A DNA stretch of 64,000 nt from the NCBI GenBank assembly GCA_016211245.1, contig JACQSQ010000013.1, positions 796 to 64,795 on the forward strand, in the 5' to 3' direction. The DNA comes from Candidatus Woesearchaeota archaeon. GTDB taxonomy: Archaea; Nanobdellota; Nanobdellia; Woesearchaeales; GW2011-AR4. Below the pieces are notes generated by a model. It ran no database searches, was not told where the DNA came from, and was given only the letters and a program-made list of their open reading frames with translations. Position numbers and translations under genes: made by a program. Shown here piece after piece: positions 12,088 to 51,495 of the stretch (its first letter is position 1; every line of letters starts with the position of its first letter).

Positions 12088-12144
12088 ACACCAAGCTAAA
12101 TTATATATATTTATATACGTTTGCATAATCTCGTTTTAGAACTC

Positions 12145-20141: not shown

Positions 20142-21362
20142 CTAAACAATCCTCGGCTCAGGCAGCGGAATAATAAACTTCACACCTTTTTCCGCATATC
20201 TCTTTGTCTTGGAAAGAATCTCATCTGCAAAGTTCCATGCCAAAATTAATATGTAATCCGGAGTTTTTTCATCCAGCATGCTTGAGCTGACAACAGGAAT
20301 ATGCGTGCCTGGGGCGAATAAACCCTGCTTTAGTGGATTGTCTTCAACAATGTACTCAATATAATCCTTTCCTATATTGCAGAAATTAAGAAGAGTGTTG
20401 CCCTTTGCTGGGGCTCCATAACCGGCTATTGTCTTGTTCTGCCTCTTGATATTCTTAATATAATCAACTAATTTGTCCCTTACGCCATAAACTTTCTCGC
20501 CAAATTTCTTGTAGGTTTCAAAGTCGTCAATGCATATGTTTTTTTCATAATCCAATAACTCTTTTACAGAGGACTGGGCTTTATGCCTGCTGCCTTCTTT
20601 TGCTGTAAAAACCCTTAGAGAGCCGCCGTGTGTCGGAACCCTTTCCACCCTGAAAATTTTCATATTATGCTTCCTAAAGAAATAATCAAGTGATGCAAGC
20701 GTGTAATAAGACATATGCTCATGATAGACATTGTCAAAAGTCATCGTCTTAAGGGTATCGACAAAATATTGTATTTCTATGACATAAATCCCATCATCTT
20801 TCAGCAAGCCCTTAACATTCCCAATGACAGAATCAATGTCATCTATATGGGCAAAAACATTTGTTGCTGTAACGACATCCGCTTTGCCTTTTCTTTTGAT
20901 TATCTCCTTTACAACCTTTTCATTGAAGAAGTCATTTATAGTCTCAACGCCATTTTCTTCCGCTATTTTAGCAACATTTGCTGCCGGCTCAACTCCAATC
21001 ACATGGACATTGAATTTTCGGAAGCCTTTTAATAAAATGCCGTCATTGGAGCCAATGTCCACAGCAAGGGATTTATTGCTTAAATTGAAGTTCTTGGTTA
21101 TATGCTCAGCCATCTCAGCAAAGTGCTTCTGGAATGTTTTTGTGGTAGAGCTTAGGTAGACATAATTGCTGAACATATCTTCTGATGGAACTATATATGT
21201 AAGCTGCACAAGCTTGCAATCATCGCAGAAGCACAATTCAAGAGGAAATTTTTTTTCTGGTTTTTTCAAATCTTCTTTTGAAAGAAAACTGTTGGCTAAT
21301 GGTGTTGTTCCTAATGATAAGAAAGTCTTTAATTTTTCATTTTTGCACATTCTGCATTTCAT
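20142..21362 (-). CDS. NDP-hexose C-methyltransferase-like, paralog 2
   Basis: Same architecture as 16020-17234: CRMCKN...CDDCKLVQL Zn-ribbon, DIGSNDGILL, C-terminal domain; convergent with the other paralog. Confidence 0.65.
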   Translation of the reverse strand: MKCRMCKNEKLKTFLSLGTTPLANSFLSKEDLKKPEKKFPLELCFCDDCKLVQLTYIVPSEDMFSNYVYLSSTTKTFQKHFAEMAEHITKNFNLSNKSLAVDIGSNDGILLKGFRKFNVHVIGVEPAANVAKIAEENGVETINDFFNEKVVKEIIKRKGKADVVTATNVFAHIDDIDSVIGNVKGLLKDDGIYVIEIQYFVDTLKTMTFDNVYHEHMSYYTLASLDYFFRKHNMKIFRVERVPTHGGSLRVFTAKEGSRHKAQSSVKELLDYEKNICIDDFETYKKFGEKVYGVRDKLVDYIKNIKRQNKTIAGYGAPAKGNTLLNFCNIGKDYIEYIVEDNPLKQGLFAPGTHIPVVSSSMLDEKTPDYILILAWNFADEILSKTKRYAEKGVKFIIPLPEPRIV

Positions 21363-21366
21363 TATA

Positions 21367-22080
21367 TCACCAGTAAGTAAAAAATATTTTTACAATCCTC
21401 TTTGCATATGCAGGAGCCTGCTTTGACAATCTAAGCTTGCTCTTTCCTGCCTCCCTTTCTTTCCAGTTGACAGGCACTTCCGCTATTTTATAGTTTTTTC
21501 GTATTGCCTTCAATGCAATTTCGAGCCCAATGTCAAATTCATTAGCTTCAAGCCCCAGCTCTTTGATTTTATCTATTCTGAAGCCCTTGAACAGGCTGGT
21601 GAAGTCCTTTAAGTCCAATCTCAAAAACGCGAACCTGACAGAGTAGTTTGCCAGCCTGTTTGCCAAAGTTTTTATGAAAGGGTAACCTTCAATCTTCGAG
21701 CCTTTCATGAACCTTGATGTGTGCACAAAGTCGCAGCCATCTCTTATTTTTTCAAGAATTGAGGGGACATATCTTATGTCATCAGGCGCATCGGACATGA
21801 AGATTATACCGTATTTGCCTGAAGCCCGGCTTATCCCTTCTCTTATGGCAGAGCCCACCCCTCTTGATTTTTGCCGGTGGATAAATCTCAGATTTTTATA
21901 TGATTTTGACAATTTCTTTAGAATTTTTTCGGTTCCGTCCCTGCTATCGTCTACTATAACAACTTCAACATCCTTGATTTTATACCTATCAAAATTTCTG
22001 AAAATCCTTGTTATGGAATCCGCAATTATCTCTTTTTCATTATAGGTTGGTATTATTATTGACAATTCACGCTTTGGCAT
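21367..22080 (-). CDS. glycosyltransferase family 2, dolichyl/polyprenyl-phosphate sugar synthase-like (Dpm1-like)
   Basis: LSIIIPTYNEKEII, VIVDDSRDGT, DAPDD-like motif (SDAPDD). Confidence 0.75.
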   Translation of the reverse strand: MPKRELSIIIPTYNEKEIIADSITRIFRNFDRYKIKDVEVVIVDDSRDGTEKILKKLSKSYKNLRFIHRQKSRGVGSAIREGISRASGKYGIIFMSDAPDDIRYVPSILEKIRDGCDFVHTSRFMKGSKIEGYPFIKTLANRLANYSVRFAFLRLDLKDFTSLFKGFRIDKIKELGLEANEFDIGLEIALKAIRKNYKIAEVPVNWKEREAGKSKLRLSKQAPAYAKRIVKIFFTYW

Positions 22081-22271
22081 GGGGCATTGTTTAAACAGCC
22101 CCTTAATAATTGTTGTGTTTTGACATGTCGGAAATATACCTCAGTCTAATTAACTGATGGATGAAGCCCAATAAACAAAAGTAATTGTGGTATATTTCCG
22201 AGCATGCTCAAAAACCGCTATGAATAATTGTAAAATTGCGGTTTTTGACATAGAAAAGTATAAATAACGCG

Positions 22272-23750
22272 ATGCAAGCATGCAAATCAAGAATGATAGC
22301 CAAAATATCCGGATTTATTGAGAAAAATTCCGACATAATCAGAAAATCCATAACCAATAATAAATTTAAGTTAGCTATATTTTCTGTCATACTCGTAACT
22401 TTAGCCACTTTTATTTTATCTTACTTCAGCAAAGATGGATTGGAAATGACGCATGTAATTGCGATACCTTTGCTATATTCCTTAGTTATTTGCAGCCTGC
22501 TTACTGCCAGGAAAAACTACAAAAGGGCAATTCTGTCAGTTTTCATAATCTCGGCATTATTCCAAATGTACTTGGCTGCGCAATTCATCGGGGTTGAGCA
22601 TGACATCAATGTCCAGTATAATGCCGCTGTAGCCTTTGAAGAAGGAAAGGACACCTACAAAGTCGTCAATCCGTACTATGCAAAGCCCATCCATAGGGAG
22701 ATAACAAGATTTTACAGGCCGAATTATGAGGAAGTCGCCAATATCATAGACTTTTATGGCCACCCTTCCAGGATATATTTATCGTATGCAGTCTACAAGA
22801 TTTCCCAATGGATGTCTGTTTATTTTAGCACCCTGATAAAATACCCTATGATAATTGCGTCACTGGTAATTGCATTTTTGATGCGCAAAATTCTGAGAAT
22901 TCATAAAAGAAATGACAAGAAAATATACAACTCAATTGCATTGTATTTGTTTAACCCCTTGACAATAATGGTTTCTGGCTACCATGGCCAGGTTGATAAC
23001 CTTGGCATAATCTTCCTCATGCTGTTTTTGTACCTTATGCTGAAGCGGCAAAAAGTCAGCATACTAAATGACCTGATTTTTGGATTTTCGCTCGTCATAA
23101 AGCCAGTCACTGCAGCAATTGTGCCTTATTTAATGCTGAGAAGGAGAAAAATATTCAAAATGGGGCTGTTCCTGTTTACAATATCCATACCTTTTGCAGC
23201 ATTGCTATTTACTTATAAATTTTTAACTGCACAAATAGCGCTAAAATATGTGCTTCTGTACGGTGGAGTGAGGTATTTGTGGAGCTACAGCAGGATTGAG
23301 CAGTACCTTACAACAACATTTAATCTTCCAGAGGTGCACGAGGCTTTTGTTTACATATATATAGCCATAACAGTGCTGATGTTCCTGTTTATGCTCTATT
23401 ACTTCTACAAGAATAAGAATATAGGATACATTGATGGAATTATCATATCCTACTTTATATTTTATGCAATCCATTCCGGCTTTGGAATCCAGTACCTTTT
23501 ATGGTCATTGCCGTTCATGGCTTTGAAATCCATTGAAAATGTCCAATTCAGAAATCTAGTGTACATATTCTCTATCATTGGGCTGTTTTTCGGATTAACT
23601 TTCTATTATGGAAACGCAAACGCTTATTACATAATCAGGGATTTGATAGGCTATTCTTTGATAGGATTTGCATACTGGATATTTATAGTTTTTATGCTGT
23701 TGTGGTATATTAAAATAGGAATTAAGAATCAGCCTGTAAAAGCCTTGTAG
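22272..23750 (+). CDS. polytopic membrane protein, DUF2029/GT87-like mannosyltransferase candidate
   Basis: About 12 TM; loop motif GYHGQVDNLGIIFLML reminiscent of DUF2029/PimE-like GT-C; possible later start at Met9 given TATA-like GTATAAATAA at 22258-22267. Confidence 0.4.
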   Translation: MQACKSRMIAKISGFIEKNSDIIRKSITNNKFKLAIFSVILVTLATFILSYFSKDGLEMTHVIAIPLLYSLVICSLLTARKNYKRAILSVFIISALFQMYLAAQFIGVEHDINVQYNAAVAFEEGKDTYKVVNPYYAKPIHREITRFYRPNYEEVANIIDFYGHPSRIYLSYAVYKISQWMSVYFSTLIKYPMIIASLVIAFLMRKILRIHKRNDKKIYNSIALYLFNPLTIMVSGYHGQVDNLGIIFLMLFLYLMLKRQKVSILNDLIFGFSLVIKPVTAAIVPYLMLRRRKIFKMGLFLFTISIPFAALLFTYKFLTAQIALKYVLLYGGVRYLWSYSRIEQYLTTTFNLPEVHEAFVYIYIAITVLMFLFMLYYFYKNKNIGYIDGIIISYFIFYAIHSGFGIQYLLWSLPFMALKSIENVQFRNLVYIFSIIGLFFGLTFYYGNANAYYIIRDLIGYSLIGFAYWIFIVFMLLWYIKIGIKNQPVKAL

Positions 23751-28991: not shown

Positions 28992-29052
28992 TAACCAGTA
29001 AATTTATTATAATATATCAAATTATTGCTAATAATTTTTGACAAAAAGGGAA

Positions 29053-29070
29053 TATTTAAATATAAAAAGT
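29053..29070 (+). promoter_or_regulatory. archaeal-type TATA box/BRE candidate (ATATTTAAATATAAAAAG) about 21 nt upstream of ATG 29086
   Basis: A/T-rich TATA-like octamer at the spacing expected for a leaderless archaeal transcript. Confidence 0.35.
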
Positions 29071-29085
29071 AAAAAAGTATGCAAA

Positions 29086-30057
29086 ATGAGCAATTTTGAA
29101 ACTACTAAGAAAGATTTGGATATACTGTTTGAACTAAGCCTGAATGCAAGAGCCACTATCACACAGATTGCCAAAAAAGTAAAATTGTCAAAACAAGTGG
29201 TAAGTTACAGGCTTAGTTTGCTGGAGAAGAATAAAGTTATCTTGGGATACTATGCGATAACCAATATCTATATGCTTGGAAAAACACATTATCGTGTATT
29301 TGTCAAATACCAAAATATGAGTTCTGAAACTGAAGAGGAGTTTATGAATTATTTAATCAAAAATCCTAAAATCGTGTGGATTGCTTATTTTGACGGTGAT
29401 TGGGATGCGGCATTTTTAGTGTGGGCCGATAATGTCAGAGAATTTGAAGGAATATTTGATGAGATCAATGAAAAATTTGGTATTTATTTTCAACAAAAAT
29501 ATTTTTCCATTGCTACTAAGATAGAATATCTAAAGTTTAAATTTCTTAACAATAACATAAATACTTCTTCCATAATTTTTGGAAATTGTTATTCTAATCA
29601 CAAACTGGATAAACTTGACAGTAATCTAGTCAATGAATTAAATTTAAACGGGAGAGCCACTCTTGTCAGTTTGGCCAATAAATACAATTCTTCAGCCAAA
29701 GTTATCAAAGAAAGAATAGATAAGCTTCAGAGAAACAGAATTATTGTCGGATACAACATTAAACTAAATCATAATCTTTTGGGGTATACGCACAGAAAAG
29801 TACTATTAAAATTGAGTAACACGTCAAAAGAAAAAATTGACCAATTGTCAACTTACCTAAAAAATCACAAAAACTTTATTTACTTGGTAAAGCCAATAGG
29901 AGATTATGATTATGAGTTTGAATTAATGACAAAATCTAATGAAGAATTTCACGAGATAATCAAAGACATAAGGTCTAAATTTGCAGAAGAAATTAAGAGC
30001 TACAACACAGTTATCCATTATAAAGAACCGAAGTCTGGACAATCTTACAATTTTTGA
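29086..30057 (+). CDS. tandem (duplicated) Lrp/AsnC-family transcriptional regulator
   Basis: Two successive units each with HTH_AsnC-type N-terminus (LDILFELSLNARATITQIAKKVKLSKQVV; LDSNLVNELNLNGRATLVSLANKYNSS) followed by RAM-like domain; ORF track start 29038 is TTG, ATG 29086 more likely. Confidence 0.55.
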   Translation: MSNFETTKKDLDILFELSLNARATITQIAKKVKLSKQVVSYRLSLLEKNKVILGYYAITNIYMLGKTHYRVFVKYQNMSSETEEEFMNYLIKNPKIVWIAYFDGDWDAAFLVWADNVREFEGIFDEINEKFGIYFQQKYFSIATKIEYLKFKFLNNNINTSSIIFGNCYSNHKLDKLDSNLVNELNLNGRATLVSLANKYNSSAKVIKERIDKLQRNRIIVGYNIKLNHNLLGYTHRKVLLKLSNTSKEKIDQLSTYLKNHKNFIYLVKPIGDYDYEFELMTKSNEEFHEIIKDIRSKFAEEIKSYNTVIHYKEPKSGQSYNF

Positions 30058-30062: not shown

Positions 30063-31124
30063 TTATTCCTTTCTCTCAACAGCCTTCATCAGGAAATTTA
30101 CCTTAATCCAAGGCGGATACTCGGGCATATCATTTTTGCCCAGTCCAAACTCATAGAAAGTGCTTTTGCCCTCACTTGATGCTTTCCTGAATCCCCGGTT
30201 TTCATACAAAGGCTTTATTCTCCAGTTGCTTTCTGTCTCAACAAGCTTGCCAACAACTTTATTGACAGAATTCTCTTTTGCGTAATGCAAAATCGCGACA
30301 ACCAAGGCAGAGCCAATGCCCCTCCCCATAGTTCTGCATGAAACAGTCAAGTCCCTTATGAACCATCCATAATCCTTTTGCTCAATTATGGTTTCTGCGA
30401 TCAGCCCATATTCGCCAAATTTGTCATTTAATTCAACAACCATCACAATGTCATGATTTTTTTCGAATGATTCTTTTAGCTGCTCCAGGCTATACCTATT
30501 TGTCGTTGCATTGAGCTCATTGGTCCTGTTAAGCAATTGAGTGACTCTTGGCCAATCTTCTTCCTCAACAGGCCTTACAGTCATCACCATATCGCATTGC
30601 ATCAGGAATTCCTTGAAATCGCCTTTGTGGCTTTTCTCTGCTTCTTCGCGATTTCTCTGCTCTTTCAACAACCGAACTCTTTTTTTGTCCTCTTCTGTGG
30701 CATTCAATGGCATCACACTTTCAAGCCCCAGGACATCCAATGGATCCAACGCGTCAAAAATATTTATTTCGGGAATCTGGGATTTCACCTCAGCCCTTTG
30801 GAAAGGATCATCATCCACAAAAAGCATTTCATCATAAGAAACATTAAATAAGCCTGCAAGCTTTTTGATCGCATCTGACTTCAAGCCCCATCCGATCTCG
30901 GGCTTTTCAAAATATTTTTCTATTTCAAATTTTTTAAGGATATTCTCAACATCCTCATAATAGTTCTTGCTGCAGATTGTGTTTTTTATGCCCCTTTTGC
31001 CCAGTTCTTTAAGAGCTTCTTTTGTGCCGGGCTTTATCTTGACATTTTCCTTGTCTTTATAGAAAACTGTGCCATCCCAGAGAGTGTTGTCGCCGTCCCA
31101 AATCACCAGCCTGATCCTTTTCAT
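30063..31124 (-). CDS. FkbH-like HAD-IIIC phosphatase domain fused to GNAT acetyltransferase
   Basis: RLVIWDGDNTLWDGT (HAD-IIIC DxDxT), central linker, C-terminal GNAT fold (TVSCRTMGRGIGSALVVAILHYAKE). Confidence 0.6.
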   Translation of the reverse strand: MKRIRLVIWDGDNTLWDGTVFYKDKENVKIKPGTKEALKELGKRGIKNTICSKNYYEDVENILKKFEIEKYFEKPEIGWGLKSDAIKKLAGLFNVSYDEMLFVDDDPFQRAEVKSQIPEINIFDALDPLDVLGLESVMPLNATEEDKKRVRLLKEQRNREEAEKSHKGDFKEFLMQCDMVMTVRPVEEEDWPRVTQLLNRTNELNATTNRYSLEQLKESFEKNHDIVMVVELNDKFGEYGLIAETIIEQKDYGWFIRDLTVSCRTMGRGIGSALVVAILHYAKENSVNKVVGKLVETESNWRIKPLYENRGFRKASSEGKSTFYEFGLGKNDMPEYPPWIKVNFLMKAVERKE

Positions 31125-31151: not shown

Positions 31152-34100
31152 TTAAACCTTTGGTTCACTCATCTTGCGCAGTATCTGATAAACGACCAAC
31201 AAAACAACAACCACAATAATCGCAGTCCAGATTATCGCAGCAAGGTTATTTTTCTTTTTCCCCGTATCCTCCATTTTATTTTCTTGTTCTGCTGGCTGTT
31301 CAGTTATGGCATCTGCTTGAATCTGGGTTTCTTCTATTGGAGCTATTGGCTCTGGTACAGGCTCAGGAGCTTTTTCTTTTGCGCCTATTGCAAATACGCT
31401 AAAACCAGGAGTTGAAGACTGGTAAAACGCATTGTTGGCATCGCTTGAAACTTTTGCCGTAGCCAATTCATTCCATTTGTCTTGGGCATATCTAAATAAT
31501 ATGACATCATCTTCATTAACCGAGTTGCTCAAAAGCCAAGCTTTTGGGACTTTAAAGCTGATGGTTATCGTTAATGCGTCGGAATCAGCAATATTTGCTT
31601 TCGTGATTTTCAAATACTGGTAAATACTCGATGCAGCATTCATGGCCAAAGGGTTTGACTCTAGGGCTTCAACAGAAAGATCAACGTTTGTCAGTGTGTT
31701 CTGGACATCGGCTTTTATCTCTGTTATTGCTATATTGTCGTTTTTTACAGCCAAAATCGCAGTTGTTCCGGCTTTAATTATATCCCACCTGCTTGATGCG
31801 GATTTGGTCACATCAACCTTAACATCTCCTCCTCCACCGCCTCCTCCCCCCCCTCCGCCTCCGCCAGAGCTGCTGCTTGAGCTGCTGCTACTGCTGCTAG
31901 ACGATGTTCCGGGAACTCCGCCGGCATAAGTTGAGAAGAGGCATGGCATTTTCCATATGCAGTAATCCGAGCCTGTTTCATTCAAACTCACGCCAGCTTG
32001 GGTGTCTCTTCTTACGCAATTTGCAAGGTTGTCATCGCAATGGTATAGCCTATCGCATGAGCCAGTTCCTTTATCTATTTGTATCATGCAGGACTTCGGA
32101 TGGAATTTGTCAACCAGTTTATTCGAAACTTCTTTGCTTAGGCCTGTATATCCGACAGTAGTGCCTGATGTGGTTGAGGTGGTGCCATTTTTGACGCCGC
32201 CAGCTGTATTCACGTTTCTGATTTCTTCGTTATGCGCAAAGCTTCTTGTTAGCCTGACATCAAGGAAGAATAAGGTTGTATTAGAAGAATTATCTCTAAG
32301 CCGTAAATTTACATTTCTAGCGGTTGTGTAGTTTATTAGTATTCCGGCGTTTGCTCCGCACTGCCTATGCAATTGTGTTTCATAAGTTCCATTGTTGTCC
32401 AAATCAAGATCCAAAATCCAGCCTGATGGCAGGCTCATATCAAATATAAAGCTGCACTTCTTGCATTTTGCCGCAGAGATTGCTGTGGTGAAATTTGAGC
32501 ATGCACTTTGCGCGCAATTACCTGCATGGTCACATATCTTTAATTTATAGTAATAAGTCTTGTTTCCGCTTAGAGTGTAATTCAATGAATTTGTGCCTGT
32601 GTCATTATACAATTCAACCTCATGCCAATTCTTGTATTTTTGGGTATTATTGTTAAAAATGCCAACATCATATAAAGTTTTGTTTAAAGTTACACAATTA
32701 GTTGAGTTATAATAGAAATCCACGCTGCCATTTGTAGGCTCATCTGTGTCGAAGCCTAATAGCGCAGCATCTGGGTATTTTTCAACATTCAAATAAACAA
32801 TTTTTGGAGCAAATGTATCTACAAATCCAGAAGCTTCAACTCCAAGACTGTTTTCCACGCAATATTGATTGCCTTTGCAGTCATAATCGTTGCAATCAGT
32901 TAGGGTGTCAAAATCCTCATCTACACCATTTCCGAAGCAGTCCTCAAATGGAATATACCCTTTATTTATCATAAAGAAGCATTCAGGATCATTTTGAGGA
33001 GACAAGCCATCACCATCACAATCAAGACTTTGATCACCGGTGCCCCAGCAGCATTCTGGTGTAAAGTCTATTGTGCCTGGTGTAAAGAATGAAGGCCCTA
33101 CAGTATCTAAAGGCGAGCTTTCATTTGTTGATTCGTTTGCTGTGGCTGAATAAAGCCTCAAATTAGCTGATAAATTCAGCAAGCCGCTGATTTTTGTGAT
33201 GTCATCCTTGTTAACACTAACCATGCCGCCTTGGATTTCGTTGCACATTTTTTGTTTCCAAGCGCTGAGTTGTATGTCTGTTGCTTTCCACTCGCTGCTA
33301 ATGCACCTATGCGCTTTTTTGAGTTCAGTTACAGAGCCATTGACGTAACTAGCCTCGTATCTGAAATATAGATCCCAGCCAACGCTGCTGCTATTTGAGT
33401 TCAAAGCGCATCCTCCTGTTGTTTTTCCATCAGAGTCCATATACCAATAGAATTTAGCAGTGTTATTTCCTGAGCCAACTCCTTGCCATGTGGTAACGCC
33501 ATTGCACATAGCGGCATCTTTAATGTTGATTACTCCAGTTCCCAAACCAAAATTGTCTTTGCTGTCTTTCATTCCGAAGTAGCATACATCACTGAATGCA
33601 GAAATACCAGTTTCCGGGCAGGGATCATTGCCTAAGGGTATTGGAGGGCTTTCCATATCCATTCCAGTGAACATCTGCATAGTGGCTGCCGAATCACACC
33701 AGCCGCTGCGCCAAGTGCCATTCAAGCTTGTGCATTGGGATTCTGTAGTTGAGTTGAACACTTTCGGCTCACACGAAGAGTAATTTGATGAGACTGTACC
33801 TGTGCTCGCTATACTCCAATTTTTCCAGAAGCATAGAGGATCAGCGTTGCATTGTGTTTGGTCAGATGCAAGTGTATAATTCCACCAGCACCTATTCCCT
33901 TTTTGGTCGCACCAACCATTATTCGCGTCAAAGCCTGTCCAGGAGCAATTTATATTTGTATTACAAGAAGATTGAAGCTTATAGTTGAAACAGTCAGTGT
34001 TATAGCTTATATCGCACATCGGATTTGGGTCTGGCAGCCACTTGCAGTTTGTCTGGTTGCTGCAAACAGTTTGTGTTTCGTACTGGAAACAGCTGAACAC

Positions 34101-37100
34101 TTGCGTTCCGTTGCCTCCAAATCCCGTAGGGTCGCACCAGCCGTTATTGCTTTTGCACATGCCATTTGTGCTGCAATCGCTGCCTAAATTAAAACATCCA
34201 GATTCACAATAGCCTCCTGTTGGAGACCAAGGGTCAAAGCGCCATGAGCAGCTTAAATTACCCCCAATTGTGGAATTTGCATTATTACAAGCAGTTTGAT
34301 TTGACATTAAAGTTTGGTTGAAATGGCATATCTCATGCCTATGGCCGCACCATCCTGTAGTGCCGCCAATGCTTCCCATATGGGCGTCAACAAACCAATA
34401 ACACCTGCTATTGCCATTACAATCGCTTTGGCTTAAAGGTGCGCATTCGTCCCATACTGAAGAATTTAAGTTGCACGTATTTGAGCCAGATGCATGCCAC
34501 TCGCAAGAAGCATTTTCCCTGGCGCAACTAGTTTGATCGCCATCATTTTGCCAGCAAACTGCAGATTTTTGGTCGCACCAGCTGCCATATGTGTCATTGA
34601 ACCATCTGCAATCATTGTCAACACAGCTTGCATTATTTGAGTACTGCCAGCAATCTTTAATGGAAGTTCCTCCGCAAAATGGATCTGTAAAGCAGCCACC
34701 GTCAGCACAATCTACTTTTGCGTCTCCATCATTATCACTACCATCAAAGCAAATTTCAGTAGCGCCTGTATCCTCTGCTGTGGATGATTTTTTGCATAGC
34801 CCAAGAGTAGCATCCCATGTGCATGAGCCATTAACTCCTCTTCCCCTTTCTACACAGGATTTCTGGTCATTACAATTTCCACATCTGTCAAGGCATGTTG
34901 TTGTGCCGGCAGAAGCGCAAGAGCCCTTTGTAGAGTCCAAAGGATCTATTTTCCAATCGCATTTGGCGTCCAAGCATTTTGTTTTTGCATTTACTTCATT
35001 ATAAACGTTGCAAGCATCACAATTATTTGAGTCACATTTGCTTACACTTCCATCTTTAAACTCCTTGCTTGCCTCGCAATAGCCAAAACCATTAGGCGCT
35101 ATGCCATCAGTGCGCCACACGCAAAACCCTAATGCTGAAGACTCGCAGGCTGTTCTTGCAGCTTCTACGTTTGTGTAATTTGTGCCATCCGTCTTGAATT
35201 CGCATCTAAAGCATCCTATATCACAGTTGCCTCCTTGAGAGCCTAACTTTGGCGCGCATCTTCCAGATGTTATAGAGGCATTTGTCAGATTGCCAGTGCC
35301 GCAATAGCTTTCTGTAACCCATAAACCACCCACACCCTTTTCACACATGTCCCTATTATCCACTAAATCGATGTCGCCTTCTTCGCCTTGGGCAAAGAAT
35401 GAATCACCCTTAAACTCGCAATGCTTTGTTGCGTTATTCCACTTGCAAGGCATATACCATGGGTTATTAGCTATTTCCTTGCATTTGCTTTCTGAGTCAT
35501 AAGCATTGTAGTCATCACAATAAGTGGCTCCTTCAGGAGGCTTTTTTAGGTTGTCCCAGCATTTTGTTGAAAATTTATTTTCAGAGCAACTACCGGCCTG
35601 CCATTCACAGCAATGAGGCAAAAATGTAGCACTATTGCATAGATTAGAATTATTAAGTAATGTACAATTTAATCCATTTGCATATATACCATTTGCTATA
35701 TCAACTGCGACAAGGGTGCTTACATTGCATTGGTTTAATGTGGTATCATACCTGCAGCCAGTTGTATTTGAGCATGAGCTTTGGTTTTGGTCGAAAATCC
35801 AGCAGCCTGGAGCAACAAAAGTGCCTCCAATTGCGCCTCCTTCAGTGCCTGCTGTAGGATCGTTGCATTTGGATCCTAGGGAATCCCACCAGCACCATGC
35901 AGAGTCAAAGCATTTTTTCTCATCTGTTATATTAGTGCAGCTAAAGACAGAAGTAAAGTTTTGATAACATGAGCCACCCCAAGTAAGGTTTTCATATACA
36001 CAACTTAATCCGTACCCATTATTTTCACAAGTGCTTTTATTGCCTTGGTGCCATTCGTCAAAACTCCAGCAGCCAACGCTTTCACACCATCCAGTTGTTG
36101 CGTAAGTAGATATTTGCCAGGTGCAGTTTTTGTTAGCATATCCTAGGGATCCTTTGCAGCTAGTTTCATCTACATTTTGCCAGCATGACCTTGTCTCGCA
36201 CCAAGGATTGTTCCAAGCGCATGTAAGGCCTGCAATTCCGGTACTCTGGCAGCCGGATTGGTTATTGTTGAATGTATAACAGTTAAATTCCTGGCAATAA
36301 TTGTACTTTGAATCCCATTTGCAATTTAATGTGTCGGTTGTGTTCGTGCATGAGGCTTGTGATTGATGCTTTGTGTCCCAGCATCCAATATCAGAACAAT
36401 AACCATAATTAGTCCAGTAACAATCAACATCTGAATTGCATGCAGCTTGTGATGTATAGTCCCAGCAGCCTCTTTGCCAGCAAGCGCCCCACTTGCAGCC
36501 TGTTGTGTTTCTGCACTTTGCCTCATTTGTTGAGATATTGACTCCACTACATTGCCAGTTTCCAAAGCAATGAGATGCACTGCCGTTAGTTGTCGTGTTC
36601 ACAGGAACTAAAGCCGGACCATATATGCAATCTAGTCCATAAGCATCAGTATCATCTTCGCAAGCCGTTTCGTTTGTGCCGTCATAATTCCAGCATTGTA
36701 TTTCTGTGCACCATGTATAGGTTTGAACTTTAGAGCCTTGCCATAAGCATGTGCCATTCAAATGACCAGAAGCATTTGCATTTTTACACCCGCTTTCTGT
36801 GTAAAAACTCCAGCAGCCAAGCTCTTCGCACCATCCTGTGCCCCAAGCATCATTTCGCCAAGTGCATTGTGAGTTATTTTGGCAGTTTGTCTTGTCAGAA
36901 TATGTCCAGCAGGTTGTTACTCCAAATGCAAAGTTGGCAAATACAAAAAATAAGAGGATAACCGCTACTAGAAAAAATAAGAATATAGATAATTGAAGCC
37001 CTCTTTTTCCTAACATTAATGCACCATTAGTTAATGTTATTTTATCATGAAAGCGCTTATATTTAAACATTCCGAAATTCAGGTTTGAGGCCCTAAAGTT

Positions 37101-37130
37101 AAGAAAACCATTAAACAATTCGAGACCCAT
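31152..37130 (-). CDS. giant (1992 aa) secreted Cys/Trp-repeat surface (glyco)protein with C-terminal TM anchor; S-layer/cell-surface protein candidate
   Basis: Signal peptide likely from Met39 (MLGKRGLQLSIFLFFLVAVILLFFVFANFAFG, start about 37016). About 1000 aa of CxW-type Cys-rich repeats. Dozens of N-X-S/T sequons. Beta-rich central region. Ser14-Gly13 linker (31827-31907). PGF-containing domain (PGF at 31401-31409). PEPVPEPIAP linker. Terminal TM helix (31179-31244) followed by RKMSEPKV. Confidence 0.8.
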   Translation of the reverse strand: MGLELFNGFLNFRASNLNFGMFKYKRFHDKITLTNGALMLGKRGLQLSIFLFFLVAVILLFFVFANFAFGVTTCWTYSDKTNCQNNSQCTWRNDAWGTGWCEELGCWSFYTESGCKNANASGHLNGTCLWQGSKVQTYTWCTEIQCWNYDGTNETACEDDTDAYGLDCIYGPALVPVNTTTNGSASHCFGNWQCSGVNISTNEAKCRNTTGCKWGACWQRGCWDYTSQAACNSDVDCYWTNYGYCSDIGCWDTKHQSQASCTNTTDTLNCKWDSKYNYCQEFNCYTFNNNQSGCQSTGIAGLTCAWNNPWCETRSCWQNVDETSCKGSLGYANKNCTWQISTYATTGWCESVGCWSFDEWHQGNKSTCENNGYGLSCVYENLTWGGSCYQNFTSVFSCTNITDEKKCFDSAWCWWDSLGSKCNDPTAGTEGGAIGGTFVAPGCWIFDQNQSSCSNTTGCRYDTTLNQCNVSTLVAVDIANGIYANGLNCTLLNNSNLCNSATFLPHCCEWQAGSCSENKFSTKCWDNLKKPPEGATYCDDYNAYDSESKCKEIANNPWYMPCKWNNATKHCEFKGDSFFAQGEEGDIDLVDNRDMCEKGVGGLWVTESYCGTGNLTNASITSGRCAPKLGSQGGNCDIGCFRCEFKTDGTNYTNVEAARTACESSALGFCVWRTDGIAPNGFGYCEASKEFKDGSVSKCDSNNCDACNVYNEVNAKTKCLDAKCDWKIDPLDSTKGSCASAGTTTCLDRCGNCNDQKSCVERGRGVNGSCTWDATLGLCKKSSTAEDTGATEICFDGSDNDGDAKVDCADGGCFTDPFCGGTSIKDCWQYSNNASCVDNDCRWFNDTYGSWCDQKSAVCWQNDGDQTSCARENASCEWHASGSNTCNLNSSVWDECAPLSQSDCNGNSRCYWFVDAHMGSIGGTTGWCGHRHEICHFNQTLMSNQTACNNANSTIGGNLSCSWRFDPWSPTGGYCESGCFNLGSDCSTNGMCKSNNGWCDPTGFGGNGTQVFSCFQYETQTVCSNQTNCKWLPDPNPMCDISYNTDCFNYKLQSSCNTNINCSWTGFDANNGWCDQKGNRCWWNYTLASDQTQCNADPLCFWKNWSIASTGTVSSNYSSCEPKVFNSTTESQCTSLNGTWRSGWCDSAATMQMFTGMDMESPPIPLGNDPCPETGISAFSDVCYFGMKDSKDNFGLGTGVINIKDAAMCNGVTTWQGVGSGNNTAKFYWYMDSDGKTTGGCALNSNSSSVGWDLYFRYEASYVNGSVTELKKAHRCISSEWKATDIQLSAWKQKMCNEIQGGMVSVNKDDITKISGLLNLSANLRLYSATANESTNESSPLDTVGPSFFTPGTIDFTPECCWGTGDQSLDCDGDGLSPQNDPECFFMINKGYIPFEDCFGNGVDEDFDTLTDCNDYDCKGNQYCVENSLGVEASGFVDTFAPKIVYLNVEKYPDAALLGFDTDEPTNGSVDFYYNSTNCVTLNKTLYDVGIFNNNTQKYKNWHEVELYNDTGTNSLNYTLSGNKTYYYKLKICDHAGNCAQSACSNFTTAISAAKCKKCSFIFDMSLPSGWILDLDLDNNGTYETQLHRQCGANAGILINYTTARNVNLRLRDNSSNTTLFFLDVRLTRSFAHNEEIRNVNTAGGVKNGTTSTTSGTTVGYTGLSKEVSNKLVDKFHPKSCMIQIDKGTGSCDRLYHCDDNLANCVRRDTQAGVSLNETGSDYCIWKMPCLFSTYAGGVPGTSSSSSSSSSSSSSGGGGGGGGGGGGGDVKVDVTKSASSRWDIIKAGTTAILAVKNDNIAITEIKADVQNTLTNVDLSVEALESNPLAMNAASSIYQYLKITKANIADSDALTITISFKVPKAWLLSNSVNEDDVILFRYAQDKWNELATAKVSSDANNAFYQSSTPGFSVFAIGAKEKAPEPVPEPIAPIEETQIQADAITEQPAEQENKMEDTGKKKNNLAAIIWTAIIVVVVLLVVYQILRKMSEPKV

Positions 37131-46571: not shown

Positions 46572-46617
46572 TGTTCTAGGCTAAAATTTAAATAGTGTTA
46601 TCTTTTTTTAAATAGCT

Positions 46618-47340
46618 ATGAGAATTTTAATAACAGGAGGAGCGGGAGCATTGGGCAGTTCTTTAAAAAAAGTTTTCAAGAATGCATACTGCCCAACTCG
46701 CAAGGAGATGGATGTGACAAGTGCCCGCTCTGTAAACAAAGCTGTTCTGAAGTATAATCCTGATGTATTAATTCATGCAGCCGCCTTAGTCGGCATAAGG
46801 GAGTGCGAAGAAAATAAAGAGAAAGCATGGCTTACAAATGTAGAAGGAACGCAAAATATTGTCAATGCCTTGAGGAAATTAAACAATAACTGCTATTTGA
46901 TTTATATGTCAACTGCATGCGTTTTTGCAGGCGAACAGGAAAAATATTATGCAGAAGACGACATTCCTGGCCCAAAGAATTATTATTCCTTAACAAAGCT
47001 CTGCGGCGAGCTTGTTGCAAGGCAATACACAAACACATGCATTATAAGGACAAATTTCGCGCCAAAATCACAATGGAAATATCCAAAGGCATTTGTTGAC
47101 AGATATGGCACGTATCTTTTCAGCGATAATGTTGCCGAAGGCATTCTTGATGTTGTGAAGAAAAAGCCAAGAGGGATAATACACATTGTTGGCAGCAAAC
47201 GAATGAGCATGTATGAATTGGCGCTGTTGGTAGGCTCTAAAAATACAGGCAAGATGACTTTGCAGGAATATCAAGGTCCGCCTTTGACAGTAGACATGAG
47301 CTTATCAACAAAGGAATGGAAGAAATATCAAATAAAGTAA
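46618..47340 (+). CDS. short NAD(P)-dependent sugar-nucleotide reductase/epimerase (RmlD-like)
   Basis: MRILITGGAGALGSSL, YSLTKLCGE (YxxxK); 240 aa. Confidence 0.55.
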   Translation: MRILITGGAGALGSSLKKVFKNAYCPTRKEMDVTSARSVNKAVLKYNPDVLIHAAALVGIRECEENKEKAWLTNVEGTQNIVNALRKLNNNCYLIYMSTACVFAGEQEKYYAEDDIPGPKNYYSLTKLCGELVARQYTNTCIIRTNFAPKSQWKYPKAFVDRYGTYLFSDNVAEGILDVVKKKPRGIIHIVGSKRMSMYELALLVGSKNTGKMTLQEYQGPPLTVDMSLSTKEWKKYQIK

Positions 47341-47357
47341 TAGTATGAATAACTAAT

Positions 47358-47933: not shown

Positions 47934-48858
47934 CTACAACGGCAAGAATTTGCTTGAAAACATGTTAAGATCGATTTCTAAATTAAGATATAGGGATTGC
48001 GAGATTATTGTTCTTGACAACAAATCAACAGATGGGAGCCAGGAATTTGTTAGAAAGCTTAGGAATGTAAAACTGGTGGAGAATCCATCCAACATGGGCT
48101 ATTCCGGCATAAATTCTGCAATCAAATATTGCAAGGGAGAGCTTATATTATTCTTGAACAATGACATGGAATTGGATTCCAATTGCCTGAAAGAGCTTGT
48201 AAAAACAATAAACTCAGACAAGAATGCTTCTATGGCTGTCCCAAGATTAGTGAATTTTTATGATAAAAACCTGAAATCAGGAGGAACATGGCTGTCTAGG
48301 GCATTTTATAATGGACATTTAAAAGCGACTGGAAACGAAAAAATAAGTGAAGTGCCTTATCTTGGAGTTGGGCTGATAAGAAAGGATTTTGTAGATTTAT
48401 TCGGTTATCTATTTGACCCTGATTACTTTATCTATGGCGAGGATGTGGATTTGGGGCTTAGGATACGATTAACAGGAAAGAAAGTGCTGTTTGACCCGAA
48501 AGCTATAATGTACCATCTGCATTCTGTAACAATGCAGAAGCAAAGCAGATCGTTTTCTACGTATTTAATGGAAAGAAATCTTCTTATAACTGCTTTCAAG
48601 AATCTTGAAATCAAGAATCTTGCTTTATTCCTCCCTTATATTAAACTGATGAGGTTTGTTGCCTTTGTCAAAGATATTCTTACCTTAAGATTTGATTTGG
48701 CATTTTCAAGATTAAGGGCAATGTTTTGGATATTATTAAATTTCAACAAGGTTTTGAGAAAAAGGAATGAGACGCAGAAATTCAGGAAATCTGACGATTC
48801 TTATATTCTGAAAGTGTTTAGCGAGAAATACATATTTAAGGAAAAGTTCAATGTTTGA
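47899..48858 (+). CDS. glycosyltransferase family 2
   Basis: VSIIIVNYNGKNLLENMLRSI, VLDNKSTDGS, NNDME, YGEDVDL. Confidence 0.75.
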   Translation: MRKSFVSIIIVNYNGKNLLENMLRSISKLRYRDCEIIVLDNKSTDGSQEFVRKLRNVKLVENPSNMGYSGINSAIKYCKGELILFLNNDMELDSNCLKELVKTINSDKNASMAVPRLVNFYDKNLKSGGTWLSRAFYNGHLKATGNEKISEVPYLGVGLIRKDFVDLFGYLFDPDYFIYGEDVDLGLRIRLTGKKVLFDPKAIMYHLHSVTMQKQSRSFSTYLMERNLLITAFKNLEIKNLALFLPYIKLMRFVAFVKDILTLRFDLAFSRLRAMFWILLNFNKVLRKRNETQKFRKSDDSYILKVFSEKYIFKEKFNV

Positions 48859-50344
48859 TTTCGTACACTATGGTGCCGGTTTCTTTGTTGGAGTAAGCAA
48901 TATTATACCCTTTTGTTTGTATGGCTTTTAATGAGTTATCGTCTAAAATGGCCCTTCTATCAAGCCAGAAATCCTGGTTTGTGAACATATACTTCGCTTT
49001 TCCCAAGTTTTCTTCGTCAAAATACAAGGAAATCCTTTCGATGTTGTAGGGAATGCACTGCCCGTTTGCTATAAACACATCATCATGATTTGTGTTTTCC
49101 TTTACCCATTTAAAGTCTTCTTTATAGAAATTCCAGTAATTTGAGGCCAGATAAGTTTTTGCGAAAGAGGTGAAGACAAAGCCCGCAGAAACCAATACTA
49201 TCAAGACTATGAAAATTTTTTTCAGAGAAACATTACTTAAAACCTTATCATACCCAAAAGCCCAGAAAACAGCCAAGGCCGGAAACCCAGGCAGAATTAT
49301 TCTTGAAACTCCGAAGCCGACATTCGGGACATAGAGCAGGAATAAGATGAAGTAAGAAAAAATCCACACGCCAAGCTTGCCTTTTTCATCAAATTTCCTG
49401 AAAAACCCAACGAACAAGGGAATGAGGAATACAAAAGTGCCGAACAGCCATATTGGGAGCAGCATTTTCATGTATTTTATGTCCAACAATGACAATAAGG
49501 TGTAGTTTCCGTCAGGCACGCCAAAAATCCCGAAATAAGTCGATATTATGAGATTCGGGCTTGCCAGCCTCTCAAACTCGAAAATACTGTATGACTTTAA
49601 TTCATAGCCCTTAAATGCAAAATTAAGGAAAGGCCAGATTGGGTTGCCCAGCAACAGCCAGTTTCTTATGAACCATGGAGAAGGTATAAGCAAAGATATT
49701 ACAATTAATATTATCGATTTTTTAAAAAATAATTTGTTGTTGGAAGTCTTTTTGTATAGGATAAACAGCAGCACAGGAATGACAAATAATCCATTGTATT
49801 TGGTTAAAATGGACAATCCAGCAGCGATTCCAGAGAGATATATCTTATCATTCATCAAGAAATATATACTCAAAACCACAAAAAACACAAGCATGCTCTC
49901 TACATAACTTAATACGCTGTAGTCGATAAAAATCGGGATGAATGCGAGGAAAATTGCCGAATAAAATGCAATTTTTGAATTTATTAATTTCTTAATAATT
50001 AAAAATGAAAATGCTAAAGACAAAATGCCGAATATCGGCGATATGAATTTGACCGCAAAGTTTGCGGCATTATGGCTAAACGAATTAAAAATGAAATAAA
50101 CGATTGCAGCAAAAATATGGTATAAAGGGGGACTCCAGAACGGCTCGTCCCTGCCTAAAGGCTCGAATAAAGGAATTTTTTTGTTCTCCGCCATGAACCT
50201 TGAGATTGACATGTACCAGCAGCCATCTCCAGAGATATGGTAGGGTGAGGTTAAAGACAGAACAATTAACGAGAAAAGAATAATTAAGTATATTGAATAT
50301 TTGGTGTATTTGTCATAGCTTTGGAATTCCTTAATCCTGCTCAT
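48848..50344 (-). CDS. GT-C fold membrane glycosyltransferase (PMT/ArnT-like)
   Basis: N-terminal DGCWYMSISRFMAENKKIPLFEPLGRDEPFWSPPLYHIFAA loop typical of family 39/83 GT-C; about 12 TM. Confidence 0.55.
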   Translation of the reverse strand: MSRIKEFQSYDKYTKYSIYLIILFSLIVLSLTSPYHISGDGCWYMSISRFMAENKKIPLFEPLGRDEPFWSPPLYHIFAAIVYFIFNSFSHNAANFAVKFISPIFGILSLAFSFLIIKKLINSKIAFYSAIFLAFIPIFIDYSVLSYVESMLVFFVVLSIYFLMNDKIYLSGIAAGLSILTKYNGLFVIPVLLFILYKKTSNNKLFFKKSIILIVISLLIPSPWFIRNWLLLGNPIWPFLNFAFKGYELKSYSIFEFERLASPNLIISTYFGIFGVPDGNYTLLSLLDIKYMKMLLPIWLFGTFVFLIPLFVGFFRKFDEKGKLGVWIFSYFILFLLYVPNVGFGVSRIILPGFPALAVFWAFGYDKVLSNVSLKKIFIVLIVLVSAGFVFTSFAKTYLASNYWNFYKEDFKWVKENTNHDDVFIANGQCIPYNIERISLYFDEENLGKAKYMFTNQDFWLDRRAILDDNSLKAIQTKGYNIAYSNKETGTIVYEIKH

Positions 50345-51348: not shown

Positions 51349-51495
51349 TATTATAGAATTTAATTGACTGGTTTAAAAATGTTGTTAAGAACAGAATGCT
51401 GCCAGTTTATCGTTAGATTTGTTTGTGACAATTTTTAATCAAAAGCTTTAAAAACATACTTCCGATTTTGCATACCAATGATTCAGCCAGATACC

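Follow-up and report, generated by a model that had tools for sequence, protein, structure and literature searches.

The window analysed here, a stretch of 64,000 nucleotides from a Candidatus Woesearchaeota archaeon (contig JACQSQ010000013.1), encodes a giant protein that is likely to be a vertically inherited, DPANN-wide component of the cell envelope, with a glycosylated two-piece ectodomain tethered at a Phe-Ser (F-S) junction and with no dedicated partner in the island of sugar genes that surrounds it. The product, from a DPANN (Woesearchaeota-like) archaeon with a small genome, is very probably a surface protein that is secreted, membrane-anchored and heavily N-glycosylated. Its family extends across DPANN, comprising 231 clusters at 50% identity with relatives in at least 142 species genomes. 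Conservation across DPANN phyla, a length of about 2,000 aa, a predicted richness in disulfides, sequons under selection and a fixed architecture together recommend it strongly as a candidate core component of the envelope. DPANN form a large, mostly uncultured share of the archaea, living attached to other cells, and no S-layer or host-contact protein of theirs has been experimentally determined; the family gives proteomics, cryo-ET and antibody work a definite target.

Gene and overall architecture

The open reading frame occupies positions 31152-37130 of the minus strand (1992 aa, stop included in the coordinates), exactly as given in the first-pass annotation, and the signal peptide, Cys-rich repeats, Ser/Gly linker, PGF domain and C-terminal transmembrane (TM) helix claimed there were all found; every protein feature below lies on the same strand. 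Since residues 1-38 are not matched in homologs (occupancy of 0.17 in the alignment of 84 family members), the true start is probably M39 (window position 37016), which gives a probable CDS of 1954 aa at 31152-37016; the 76%-identical ortholog has 1956 aa. Starting at M39, the protein opens with a classic signal peptide, MLGKRGLQLSIFLFFLVAVILLFFVFANFAFG, followed by VTTC (aa 39-70, 36921-37016), with a KR n-region, a hydrophobic core marked by a hydropathy peak at aa 42-57, and AFG/V at the cut, and export would proceed through Sec. The composition is unusual in Cys (7.0%), Trp (3.4%), Asn (9.1%) and Ser (9.3%).

The mature protein would have two parts. Its ectodomain, of about 1,660 aa, combines some 20 small 4-Cys modules and a central Cys-rich block with three beta-sandwich domains and two acidic double-disulfide repeats of Ca-binding-like type. 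A separate module, which comprises the Ser/Gly stalk, the PGF-pre-PGF beta-sandwich, the Pro/Glu spacer and the TM helix, would anchor it to the cell. No model covers the family-defining stretch, aa 74-1740.

Cysteine-rich modules

The Cys-rich region spans aa 74-1145 (about 1,070 aa) and contains 18 copies, in register, of a 4-Cys module with the pattern C-W-x-[YF]-x4-8-C-x5-12-C-x-W-x4-20-C, together with the differently patterned central block. The first array, of eleven modules (aa 74-472, 35715-36911), has its Cys kept in 75-99% of the family, and each module is modelled by AF2 as a short helix plus a beta-hairpin. The central block (aa 489-790, 34761-35666) has no Pfam match; with an identity of about 0.4 it ranks with the best-conserved parts of the N-terminal half, and its Cys are kept in 76-99% of members, nearly all of them in 99%. 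It is followed by a predicted acidic double-disulfide (Ca-binding-like) repeat (aa 791-820, 34671-34760), which has invariant E/C/D columns and matches NF033662 at E 1e-7, under the curated cutoff, and by a second array of 4-Cys modules (aa 827-1145, 33696-34652), recognised from sequence and conservation. The N-terminal half as a whole is modelled at moderate confidence (pLDDT 71, pTM 0.31).

Nearly all of the roughly 140 Cys are fixed across the family, and most likely they form intradomain disulfides. It could instead be supposed that they are metal-binding or redox-active, given that the MAG names point largely to anoxic habitats (groundwater or sediment), in which disulfides outside the cell would be less expected, and given one weak Fer4_19 match in the FN3-like segment (E 0.007, under cutoff). 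This is highly improbable: the Cys occur as fixed sets of four per module of about 35 aa, with no CxxC or CxxCH patterns, in modules predicted to be compact (helix plus hairpin), the protein is extracellular with N-glycan sequons within the Cys loops, and no metal-binding family was matched in Pfam or NCBIfam. Modules of similar kind, of about 30-45 aa and combining four Cys and a C-x-W signature with a helix and hairpin, are found in the PSI domains of plexins and semaphorins and in the C-terminal 4-Cys domain of trypanosome VSG. Plexin/semaphorins and the VSG domain were also the top-ranked, non-significant matches in module searches (Foldseek E >= 0.77; HMM E 0.54), and the likeness is one of resemblance, homology being supported by no significant match.

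C-terminal half and membrane anchor

Downstream of the second array lie a beta-sandwich with a conserved YWYLDTDG motif (aa 1146-1357, 33060-33695; AF2 pLDDT 84, conservation), a second acidic, Cys-containing repeat region with invariant C/D columns (aa 1360-1425, 32856-33053) and an FN3-like beta-sandwich (aa 1437-1560, 32451-32822) bearing four highly conserved sequons (N1467, N1475, N1483 and N1523). After the junction domain, considered below, a Ser/Gly linker (aa 1741-1768, 31827-31910), disordered in the model, leads to the PGF-pre-PGF domain (TIGR04213; aa 1782-1915, 31386-31787), which is matched with an E of 3.1e-25 and 89 bits against a curated cutoff of 28 bits, is modelled at pLDDT 90-97, and ends in TPGF-SVFAI, its G-F-S being invariant in 12 of 12 sequences. 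A Pro/Glu-rich spacer (aa 1918-1958, 31257-31379) separates it from the C-terminal TM helix (aa 1963-1984, 31179-31244; hydropathy), directly followed by the short basic tail RKMSEPKV; the same ending is found in 65 of 76 complete homolog loci.

Several homologs carry the database name PGF-pre-PGF, and the giant protein has this domain in common with other secreted archaeal surface proteins matching TIGR04213, in which PGF-CTERM usually follows and is processed by archaeosortase A. Two differences stand out. Only about 45% of the members of the giant-protein family have the PGF-pre-PGF domain, and the PGF of the window protein (aa 1908-1910) is separated by a Pro/Glu spacer of about 50 aa from an ordinary TM helix, unlike in archaeosortase A substrates; PGF-CTERM (TIGR04126) gave no match at E<=1.

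The Phe-Ser junction and natural gene fissions

Between the FN3-like sandwich and the linker, the model places a further beta-sandwich of 13 strands (aa 1562-1740, 31911-32447), a candidate GAIN/MAIN-like domain by predicted structure and fold search. The dipeptide F1732-S1733 (31932-31937), a candidate cleavage site, falls between its last two predicted strands, in the turn before the last; the Phe is kept in 72 of 84 members and the Ser in 63 of 76, and the pair is invariant in A2 and A5. In nine loci from three lineages the ectodomain and the linker-TM anchor are adjacent, separate genes, the ectodomain ORF stopping at the junction and the anchor having a signal peptide of its own. These are three independent fissions, all within two residues of the same peptide bond, and signal peptide cleavage of the split anchors would recreate the post-junction N-terminus.

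MAIN, the microbial GAIN-like autoproteolysis-inducing domain, was described by Brogan & Rudner 2026 (bioRxiv 10.64898/2026.05.12.724683), in portions of whose supplement no DPANN names occur. The giant protein has the same order of parts as MAIN proteins and adhesion-GPCR GAIN domains, namely a signal peptide, a large adhesion-type ectodomain, a beta-sandwich and a cell-surface anchor. It also shares with them very large size, halves that can be separate chains and the position of the Phe-Ser, in the turn that precedes the last strand; the GAIN_B/ZU5-like fold detected in its C-terminal half may be a further common trait. In contrast, MAIN proteins are anchored by sortase or SLH and the giant protein by its TM helix; moreover, the latter lacks the P2 His, carries an ectodomain of unique 4-Cys modules and has what is, from its sequence, a candidate for cleavage. 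The canonical P2 His of the HX(S/T) motif is absent from all 84 members, which have E, G, D or V at this position (L in the window protein); a His 35 residues upstream of the junction, H1697, is kept in 58 of 84. A fold search with the C-terminal half matched GAIN, ZU5 and FIIND folds at a probability of 1.00, without specifying which of the three beta-sandwiches was matched, and these matches could come from the PGF-pre-PGF domain, which likewise ends in G-F-S-x-F. At the sequence level, profile searches and hhalign revealed no homology to GAIN, ZU5 or MAIN: the junction-domain profile matched nothing in PDB or Pfam, hhalign of this domain against two bacterial MAIN sequences gave no match, and the PGF-pre-PGF domain aligned with the same two over a 13-column terminal motif only (E 0.019, prob 2.4). 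Given the missing catalytic His and the lack of demonstrable sequence homology, a GAIN/MAIN-type self-cleavage site at F1732-S1733 is possible and is proposed as a hypothesis.

The absence of the P2 His and of sequence homology to GAIN or MAIN also speaks for a less probable alternative, a single uncleaved chain of S-layer or envelope type, in which F-S is merely a conserved terminal beta-strand and the fissions are incidental splits at a domain boundary. The PGF-pre-PGF domain ends in GFSxF with no cleavage known, and many sequons together with a C-terminal anchor are typical of archaeal S-layer proteins (general knowledge; Nanobdella preprint). Three fissions converging on one peptide bond, with the anchor gaining a new signal peptide, argue against it, as do the confident GAIN/ZU5/FIIND fold matches. 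FIIND-type ZU5 domains, furthermore, cut F/S without a P2 His. In the preferred two-piece reading, the pieces would arise by an F/S cut as in GAIN/MAIN domains or, in some lineages, from two adjacent genes, and would be joined non-covalently via the strand after the junction. The junction, with its naturally split variants, offers an evolutionary test case for the newly proposed MAIN mechanism, whose definition would be widened, and extended to DPANN, should the cut occur without the canonical His. A bolder combination of claims is doubtful as a whole: that in most DPANN this family supplies the main glycoprotein of the envelope or of host contact, two-chain through His-less F/S self-cleavage, with PGF-pre-PGF as a MAIN homolog, fission recapitulating the cleavage via signal peptidase, and the 4-Cys array of about 1,070 aa as a new disulfide-knot fold class without PDB or Pfam counterpart.

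Selection for N-glycosylation sequons

A high density of N-X-S/T sequons had been claimed in the first-pass annotation, and this is borne out: the protein has 61, against 32.0 +/- 4.8 expected from 2000 composition-preserving shuffles (shuffle maximum 48; z ~6). The 42 other proteins of the window contain 92 in total versus 96 expected, the densities being 3.06 per 100 aa in the giant protein and 0.57 in the others. The excess is family-wide, with a median z of 6.1 and z>3 in 90% of 84 members, and 15 of the 61 sequons are conserved in position in at least 50% of homologs at no more than 40% identity. The sequons are under selection. The organism is assumed to be competent for N-glycosylation, as archaea generally are, and many of the 61 sites would be glycosylated by an AglB encoded elsewhere in the genome.

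Gene neighbourhood and the sugar-gene island

The gene lies within an island of sugar genes of about 58 kb (5100-63260), whose content, annotated with Pfam, is as first described: a Wzx flippase, two GT9, about six GT2, two GT4 and four to five PMT_2-type (ArnT-like) GT-C proteins, two NDP-hexose C-methyltransferases, a UDP-GlcNAc 2-epimerase, two UDP-sugar dehydrogenases, several NAD epimerases/dehydratases, a carbamoyltransferase and four SGNH/AlgX-like proteins. The heptose that had been proposed as a constituent of the glycan fared less well, as no heptose-synthesis gene was seen and GT9 membership is its sole support. The island resembles archaeal agl-type N-glycosylation clusters and variable glyco-islands, which likewise combine a Wzx-like flippase with many GT2/GT4 transferases, epimerases and dehydrogenases acting on nucleotide sugars, and tailoring enzymes for methyl, acetyl and carbamoyl groups, and whose content varies strongly between close relatives. 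Unlike agl-type clusters, it has no aglB, and it has the PMT_2/ArnT-like proteins and two GT9. No AglB/STT3 oligosaccharyltransferase was found in the window (no STT3 Pfam match among 50 ORFs and no WWDYG-like motif), and two unannotated membrane proteins of 754 and 559 aa had no AglB match in PDB or NCBIfam. The glycan built by the island may be an N-glycan, an O-glycan, or one destined for a lipid or polymer.

The first-pass annotation had read the giant protein and the island as one dedicated, co-inherited unit in which the island builds the glycan of its centrepiece. The position of the gene within the island is in keeping with this, no other product of the window comes near the protein in sequon richness, and the 76%-identical ortholog is likewise flanked by GT9, GT4, PMT, GT2 and RmlD-like genes. 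Comparison of neighbourhoods, which had been suggested as a check, tells against it. Family members usually adjoin housekeeping genes (histone/GlxRS/FtsZ, Cdc6/PolD, enolase/SMC or RadA/eIF2alpha), and orthologs at 61-67% identity lie beside histone/GlxRS/FtsZ, Cdc6/PolD or esterase/GTPase genes. When the 31 sugar enzymes of the window were searched with phmmer against 88 homolog loci, within about 5-10 kb, five to six sugar genes were found only at the three loci of the 76% ortholog; two or more occurred at none of the 85 others, and exactly one at 7 of the 85. Even in this closest relative the linkage is rearranged: the gene has another location, between the counterparts of the GT4 at 50341-51348 and the GT9 at 51478-52701, and the relative lacks about 41 kb of the island (5.1-46.6 kb). 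The giant protein and the sugar genes thus do not co-vary, and the island, which the family normally lacks, is not dedicated to it; together with the absence of AglB from the island, this largely refutes the reading, which is improbable. The accompanying claim that no described system combines these elements has given way to membership of a conserved DPANN-wide family, whereas the description as a secreted, membrane-anchored and very probably N-glycosylated surface protein in a large sugar-gene island is supported. The gene is, by its comparative context, a core gene that appears to have happened to fall within a hypervariable glyco-island in this lineage; the island plausibly supplies glycan for the protein in this genome, yet as context and not as a co-inherited partner. 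A target protein inside a sugar island should not be taken for a functional unit without comparative checks.

Possible role as an S-layer-like canopy or host-contact adhesin

In the preferred reading, a stalk in the membrane would carry a canopy or adhesin that is glycosylated, stabilised by disulfides, and able to be assembled and possibly shed. The traits of an S-layer glycoprotein are present, the protein being secreted, sequon-rich, C-terminally anchored and beta-rich; no S-layer model was matched in Pfam or NCBIfam, and homologs are named only hypothetical or PGF-pre-PGF. According to the Nanobdella preprint, no DPANN S-layer protein has so far been determined, and a Woesearchaeota metatranscriptome paper reports 'S-layer protein genes' among the top expressed, without identifiers linkable to the giant protein. 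The DPANN candidates published so far have an Ig fold and a length of about 1,000 aa, whereas the giant protein is about twice as large and extraordinarily Cys-rich; it has no sequence relation to NEQ300, Micr_00292 or MJ1_0160/MJ1_0707, nor to SlaA/SlaB.

A role mainly in host contact, as an adhesin on an episymbiotic DPANN cell instead of a lattice former, is possible and rather less likely; following the MAIN model, shear or contact would then detach the ectodomain from its stalk. Against it, the architecture and every Cys are kept across phyla whose hosts presumably differ, an unusual conservation for an adhesin specific to its host, and there is no recognisable lectin or enzyme domain; in favour of such a role are the domain layout, identical to that of MAIN proteins, beta-sandwich matches that include the adhesins SiiE and SraP as well as CBM56, and the mostly episymbiotic life of DPANN. 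For an S-layer-like role, the closest parallel in design is the two-component S-layer of Sulfolobales, in which a sequon-rich, secreted, beta-rich canopy (SlaA) is likewise carried on a membrane-anchored stalk (SlaB), and in the nine split loci of the giant-protein family canopy and stalk are also separate adjacent genes.

Architecture of the giant protein

The giant protein is most likely a conserved two-part envelope glycoprotein of DPANN archaea. Its first part would be a large, N-glycan-covered ectodomain with many disulfides and acidic, Ca-binding-like repeats, tethered by a second part that would comprise a Ser/Gly stalk, a PGF-pre-PGF domain and a TM helix. The ORF (31152..37130, minus strand) encodes 1992 aa, with 7.0% C, 3.4% W, 9.1% N, 9.3% S and 9.0% G. 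The true start is probably M39 (window position 37016), because homologs have nothing that matches aa 1-38 (alignment occupancy 0.17) and the 76% ortholog has a length of 1956 aa; starting there, the protein would carry a typical signal peptide, MLGKRGLQLSIFLFFLVAVILLFFVFANFAFG, cleaved before VTTC. A second hydrophobic segment, the C-terminal TM helix (aa 1963-1984), is followed by RKMSEPKV and the protein end. NCBIfam models place the PGF-pre-PGF domain (TIGR04213) at aa 1782-1915, with 89 bits against a cutoff of 28, and, below cutoff, an acidic double-disulfide repeat at aa 791-819. Pfam gave no match, whether queried with the full-length protein or with eight segments taken singly at E<=10, and a PDB sequence search with the whole protein returned only scFv, matching the low-complexity Gly/Ser linker. 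A PGF-CTERM/archaeosortase substrate was ruled out, such a C-terminus being absent, as was an enzyme or toxin, since there is no catalytic fold.

Two stretches of the ectodomain, aa 74-472 and 827-1145, are built from the module C-W-x-[YF]-x4-8-C-x5-12-C-x-W-x4-20-C, present in 18 copies in register with four invariant Cys each and often holding a sequon in the C2-C3 loop. Between the two arrays lie a Cys-rich block of another Cys pattern (aa 489-790) and the acidic, D/N-rich double-disulfide unit. Across 84 aligned family members with ~30-40% identity, almost all of the ~140 Cys are kept in 75-99% of the sequences; each 4-Cys module is therefore orthologous across the family, one to one, which rules out a variable repeat array. 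An AlphaFold2 model of the Cys-rich half, made with a 37-sequence alignment, is of moderate confidence (pLDDT 71, pTM 0.31) and describes a string of short-helix-plus-hairpin units. Foldseek with this N-terminal model found nothing significant in the PDB, plexin and semaphorins ranking first at E >= 0.77, so that a PSI-domain identity of the modules is unsupported; the sole PDB match of a module profile was the trypanosome VSG C-terminal domain (E 0.54). These resemblances are leads and not evidence.

A widespread DPANN family

A homolog search with the giant protein returned 83 proteins of 1,100-2,970 aa, the closest five being 76, 67, 66, 67 and 61% identical and the others 27-39%. Those with names are called 'PGF-pre-PGF domain-containing protein' or 'hypothetical', and they come from MAGs of Candidatus Woesearchaeota, Nanoarchaeota, Aenigmatarchaeota and Nanohalarchaeota. 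When one genome was scanned for each species, at least 142 proved to encode relatives; they include the complete genome of Archaeon GW2011_AR15, members of Pacearchaeota and Iainarchaeum, and one MAG of Altiarchaeales. An exhaustive HMMER search with aa 1146-1740 (search space 1.84 billion; representatives clustered at 50% identity) retrieved 231 cluster representatives at E<=1e-3 and 141 at E<=1e-30. A literature search found no prior description of this Cys-rich family. Judged by these homologs, the giant protein is a member of an undescribed but widespread DPANN family and is not unique to this locus.

Members vary at the C-terminus. The homolog from IMC4, a MAG with an Altiarchaeales label (L074, 7142-12283), ends in ...NWTMTA and has neither a TM helix nor a detectable adjoining anchor ORF. 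In five homologs of 2,200-2,565 aa (loci L059, L067, L073, L075 and L088) the TM helix is followed by an additional, conserved cytoplasmic tail with the ending ...GW(D/K)E(D/E)(K/R)V(D/E)..., which suggests an intracellular interaction module.

Sequon enrichment

The first-pass annotation had noted dozens of sequons along the protein, and their number exceeds what composition predicts: 61 N-X(not P)-S/T sequons were counted against 32.0 +/- 4.8 (maximum 48) in 2000 shuffles, whereas the 42 other window proteins hold 92 against 96 expected, the densities being 3.06 and 0.57 per 100 aa, respectively. The excess is family-wide, with a median z of 6.1 and z>3 in 90% of the 84 members. With position conservation defined as within 3 alignment columns and measured among homologs at <=40% identity, 15 of the 61 sequons are conserved in at least half of these homologs and 33 in >=30%; the best conserved are N1467 (91%), N1600 (82%), N493 (79%), N1523 (78%) and N566 (77%). 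The sequon richness therefore stands against the composition test, and selection for N-glycosylation is its simplest reading.

The ectodomain-anchor junction

The ectodomain meets the linker-anchor at the F1732-S1733 dipeptide, here called the junction, near the end of a beta-sandwich, the junction domain (aa 1562-1740). Six database homologs terminate exactly at the junction Phe or Leu, and in two of them the next ORF begins 1-2 nt past the stop. That ORF encodes its own signal peptide and then an aromatic-containing N-terminus (GYNIVVP... or FASGEPGT...), the remainder being a Ser/Gly linker, a ~100-aa domain, an acidic spacer, a TM helix and a basic tail. Among the fetched loci, 65 encode a single chain with a TM helix, nine are split at the junction, two are unresolved and six run off the contig end. 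The nine split loci belong to three lineages, whose ectodomains end in ...PFCDF, ...VSLGL or ...VPAEWGC at the stop codon. One subfamily holds both split and single-chain forms, and the C-terminal part of its single-chain form shows visible homology to the separately encoded anchor. It follows that ectodomain and anchor are modules that can be separated and that adjoin at a constant peptide bond; this two-module organisation is well supported. In split versions, signal peptidase would yield nearly the same anchor N-terminus as cleavage of the F-S bond.

A May 2026 preprint by Brogan and Rudner (bioRxiv 10.64898/2026.05.12.724683) describes microbial GAIN-like autoproteolysis-inducing (MAIN) domains in bacterial and archaeal surface proteins. 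Their conserved H-F-S motif sits in the turn that joins the final two strands; the chain is cut at its F-S bond, and both pieces stay together afterwards. The architecture is always signal peptide, adhesion or enzymatic domains, MAIN and surface anchor, and the authors' structural annotation labels the domain as ECOD 'ZU5' (bioRxiv 10.64898/2026.05.12.724683). The giant-protein family matches MAIN in architecture and F-S position and may share its fold class, but the residue two before the candidate cleavage bond (P2) is never His: among 84 members it is E in 37, G in 17, D in 10 and V in 7, and the window protein has Leu there. Sequence and profile comparisons of the family with GAIN, ZU5 and MAIN gave no demonstrable similarity. 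The junction-domain profile had no match in the PDB, the junction domains of individual members had none in Pfam, and with the profile as query a word-indexed search for homologs retrieved nothing but fragments of giant-protein family members.

Two bacterial MAIN sequences, obtained from partial gBlocks (Table S8 of the preprint) and a homolog search, end in ...VVFKTSHF/SLFAIKT and ...VIFTAPHF/THYAFVY (slash, cleaved bond). The PGF-pre-PGF domain of the window protein ends in ...AFYQSSTPGF-SVFAIGA; its G-F-S is shared by 12 of 12 members, and the match is striking at the level of the motif. Only this terminal strand-turn-strand motif aligns between MAIN and the window domains (BLASTP E 0.13; hhalign E 0.019, probability 2.4%), and homology to MAIN is therefore not demonstrable. 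The GAIN/ZU5 fold match stems from the junction domain, the PGF-pre-PGF domain or both, and cannot be assigned to one of them because the fold-search output does not give the matched residues. The family junction thus resembles the MAIN/GAIN mechanism in a His-less form, and cleavage at F1732-S1733 is put forward as a hypothesis to which we give somewhat less than an even chance.

The protein may form an S-layer-like coat, with canopy and stalk in the manner of SlaA/SlaB, or, following the MAIN model, it may be a host-contact adhesin shed under force. That every Cys is conserved across phyla speaks for a structural core function rather than one tied to a particular host. According to a Nanobdella preprint, no S-layer protein of a DPANN archaeon has so far been determined, the candidates NEQ300, Micr_00292 and MJ1_0160 being Ig-fold proteins of ~1,000 aa.

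The sugar island and its relation to the giant gene

The first-pass annotation had described the giant protein as the centrepiece of a dedicated glycosylation island. Its account of the ORF, the architecture, the sequons and the surrounding genes stands and its interpretation holds in part, the 'centrepiece' and 'dedicated island' readings being unsupported. Window annotation matches the inventory of sugar genes, which spans 5100-63260 and comprises a Wzx-type flippase, two GT9, about six GT2 and two GT4 glycosyltransferases, four or five PMT_2/ArnT-like GT-C proteins, a UDP-GlcNAc 2-epimerase, two UDP-sugar dehydrogenases, several SDR epimerases/dehydratases, a carbamoyltransferase, four SGNH/AlgX-like proteins and other methyl- and acetyltransferases. 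Two TylC3-type NDP-hexose C-methyltransferases (16020-17234, plus strand; 20142-21362, minus strand) match Methyltransf_13/14 at E 1e-49 and 4e-60; branched-chain sugar synthesis is unusual for archaea. Heptose, also predicted for the glycan, is not confirmed; no heptose-synthesis gene was seen in the window. AglB/STT3 is absent from the window, both in the annotation and among unannotated membrane proteins; none of the five PMT_2/ArnT/DUF6541/PTPS_related-type GT-C membrane proteins (10624-13761, 48848-50344, 54991-56598 and 60023-62287) qualifies as AglB, and one of them has a sub-threshold Agl23-like match (TIGR03663, E 2e-8). The giant gene is followed directly, on its own strand, by a HAD phosphatase-GNAT acetyltransferase fusion (30063-31124, minus strand), with a double Lrp/AsnC regulator nearby (29038-30057). 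Two adjacent SGNH ORFs (7651-8700 and 8594-9895, plus strand) overlap by 107 nt as listed; the real start of the second is probably further downstream.

Six-frame ORFs of 88 loci were compared with 31 window sugar enzymes (phmmer, E<1e-5). Only the three loci of the 76% ortholog, which double as a positive control, hold many sugar genes (5-6 each); among the other 85, none has two or more and seven have one. The 67% ortholog is flanked by a further giant protein (fn3-like), a histone, GlxRS and FtsZ; the 66% ortholog adjoins Cdc6 and PolD, the 61% ortholog an esterase and a GTPase, and distant members adjoin enolase/SMC/SAM synthetase, RNase P Rpr2 or RadA/eIF2alpha. Even the 76% relative (loci L004/L005), whose shared proteins are 76-85% identical to those of the window, is rearranged: its giant gene sits between counterparts of the GT4 (50341-51348) and GT9 (51478-52701) genes, which are adjacent in the window, and the present site of the giant gene is missing. 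In that relative the RmlD-like gene (window 46611-47342) directly adjoins what corresponds to window 4566-5069, so that ~41 kb of the island (5100-46600, Wzx to SGNH3) is absent; by this alignment of gene order the difference is a large indel between close relatives, and it points to an island that is hypervariable even at this distance. Giant protein and sugar genes thus do not co-vary across relatives. Judged by these neighbourhoods, the giant gene belongs to the core genes and is found inside a sugar island in this small clade only, and no comparative evidence ties its product functionally to the island; that the island's putative glycan decorates the giant protein, among others, is plausible.

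The left edge of the island carries a Y2_Tnp transposase fragment (4056-4568, plus strand, E 3e-24), and L004 has an IS (HTH_Tnp_1 and rve, 21646-22805) near the corresponding boundary; both are consistent with IS-mediated rearrangement. Two further giant ORFs adjoin orthologs and lack a counterpart in the window, one of 2180 aa and Pfam-negative (L004, 2083-8625) and one of 2253 aa with faint fn3 matches (L001, 2326-9087). In L089 the giant homolog lies next to a RadA/Rad51 gene (1918-4395) that contains an intein with a LAGLIDADG endonuclease. The arrangement of RadA upstream and eIF2alpha downstream of the giant homolog recurs in L090, from a distant subfamily, which hints at an ancestral synteny with core genes. 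Near the start of the window, a 441-aa ORF (498-1823, plus strand) matches TIGR03696, the RHS repeat-associated core domain, at E 9e-17, and its C-terminus is weakly alpha/beta-hydrolase-like. This ORF shares 85% protein identity with L005 22400-22831 of the 76% relative and looks like the C-terminal end or a cassette of a polymorphic toxin.
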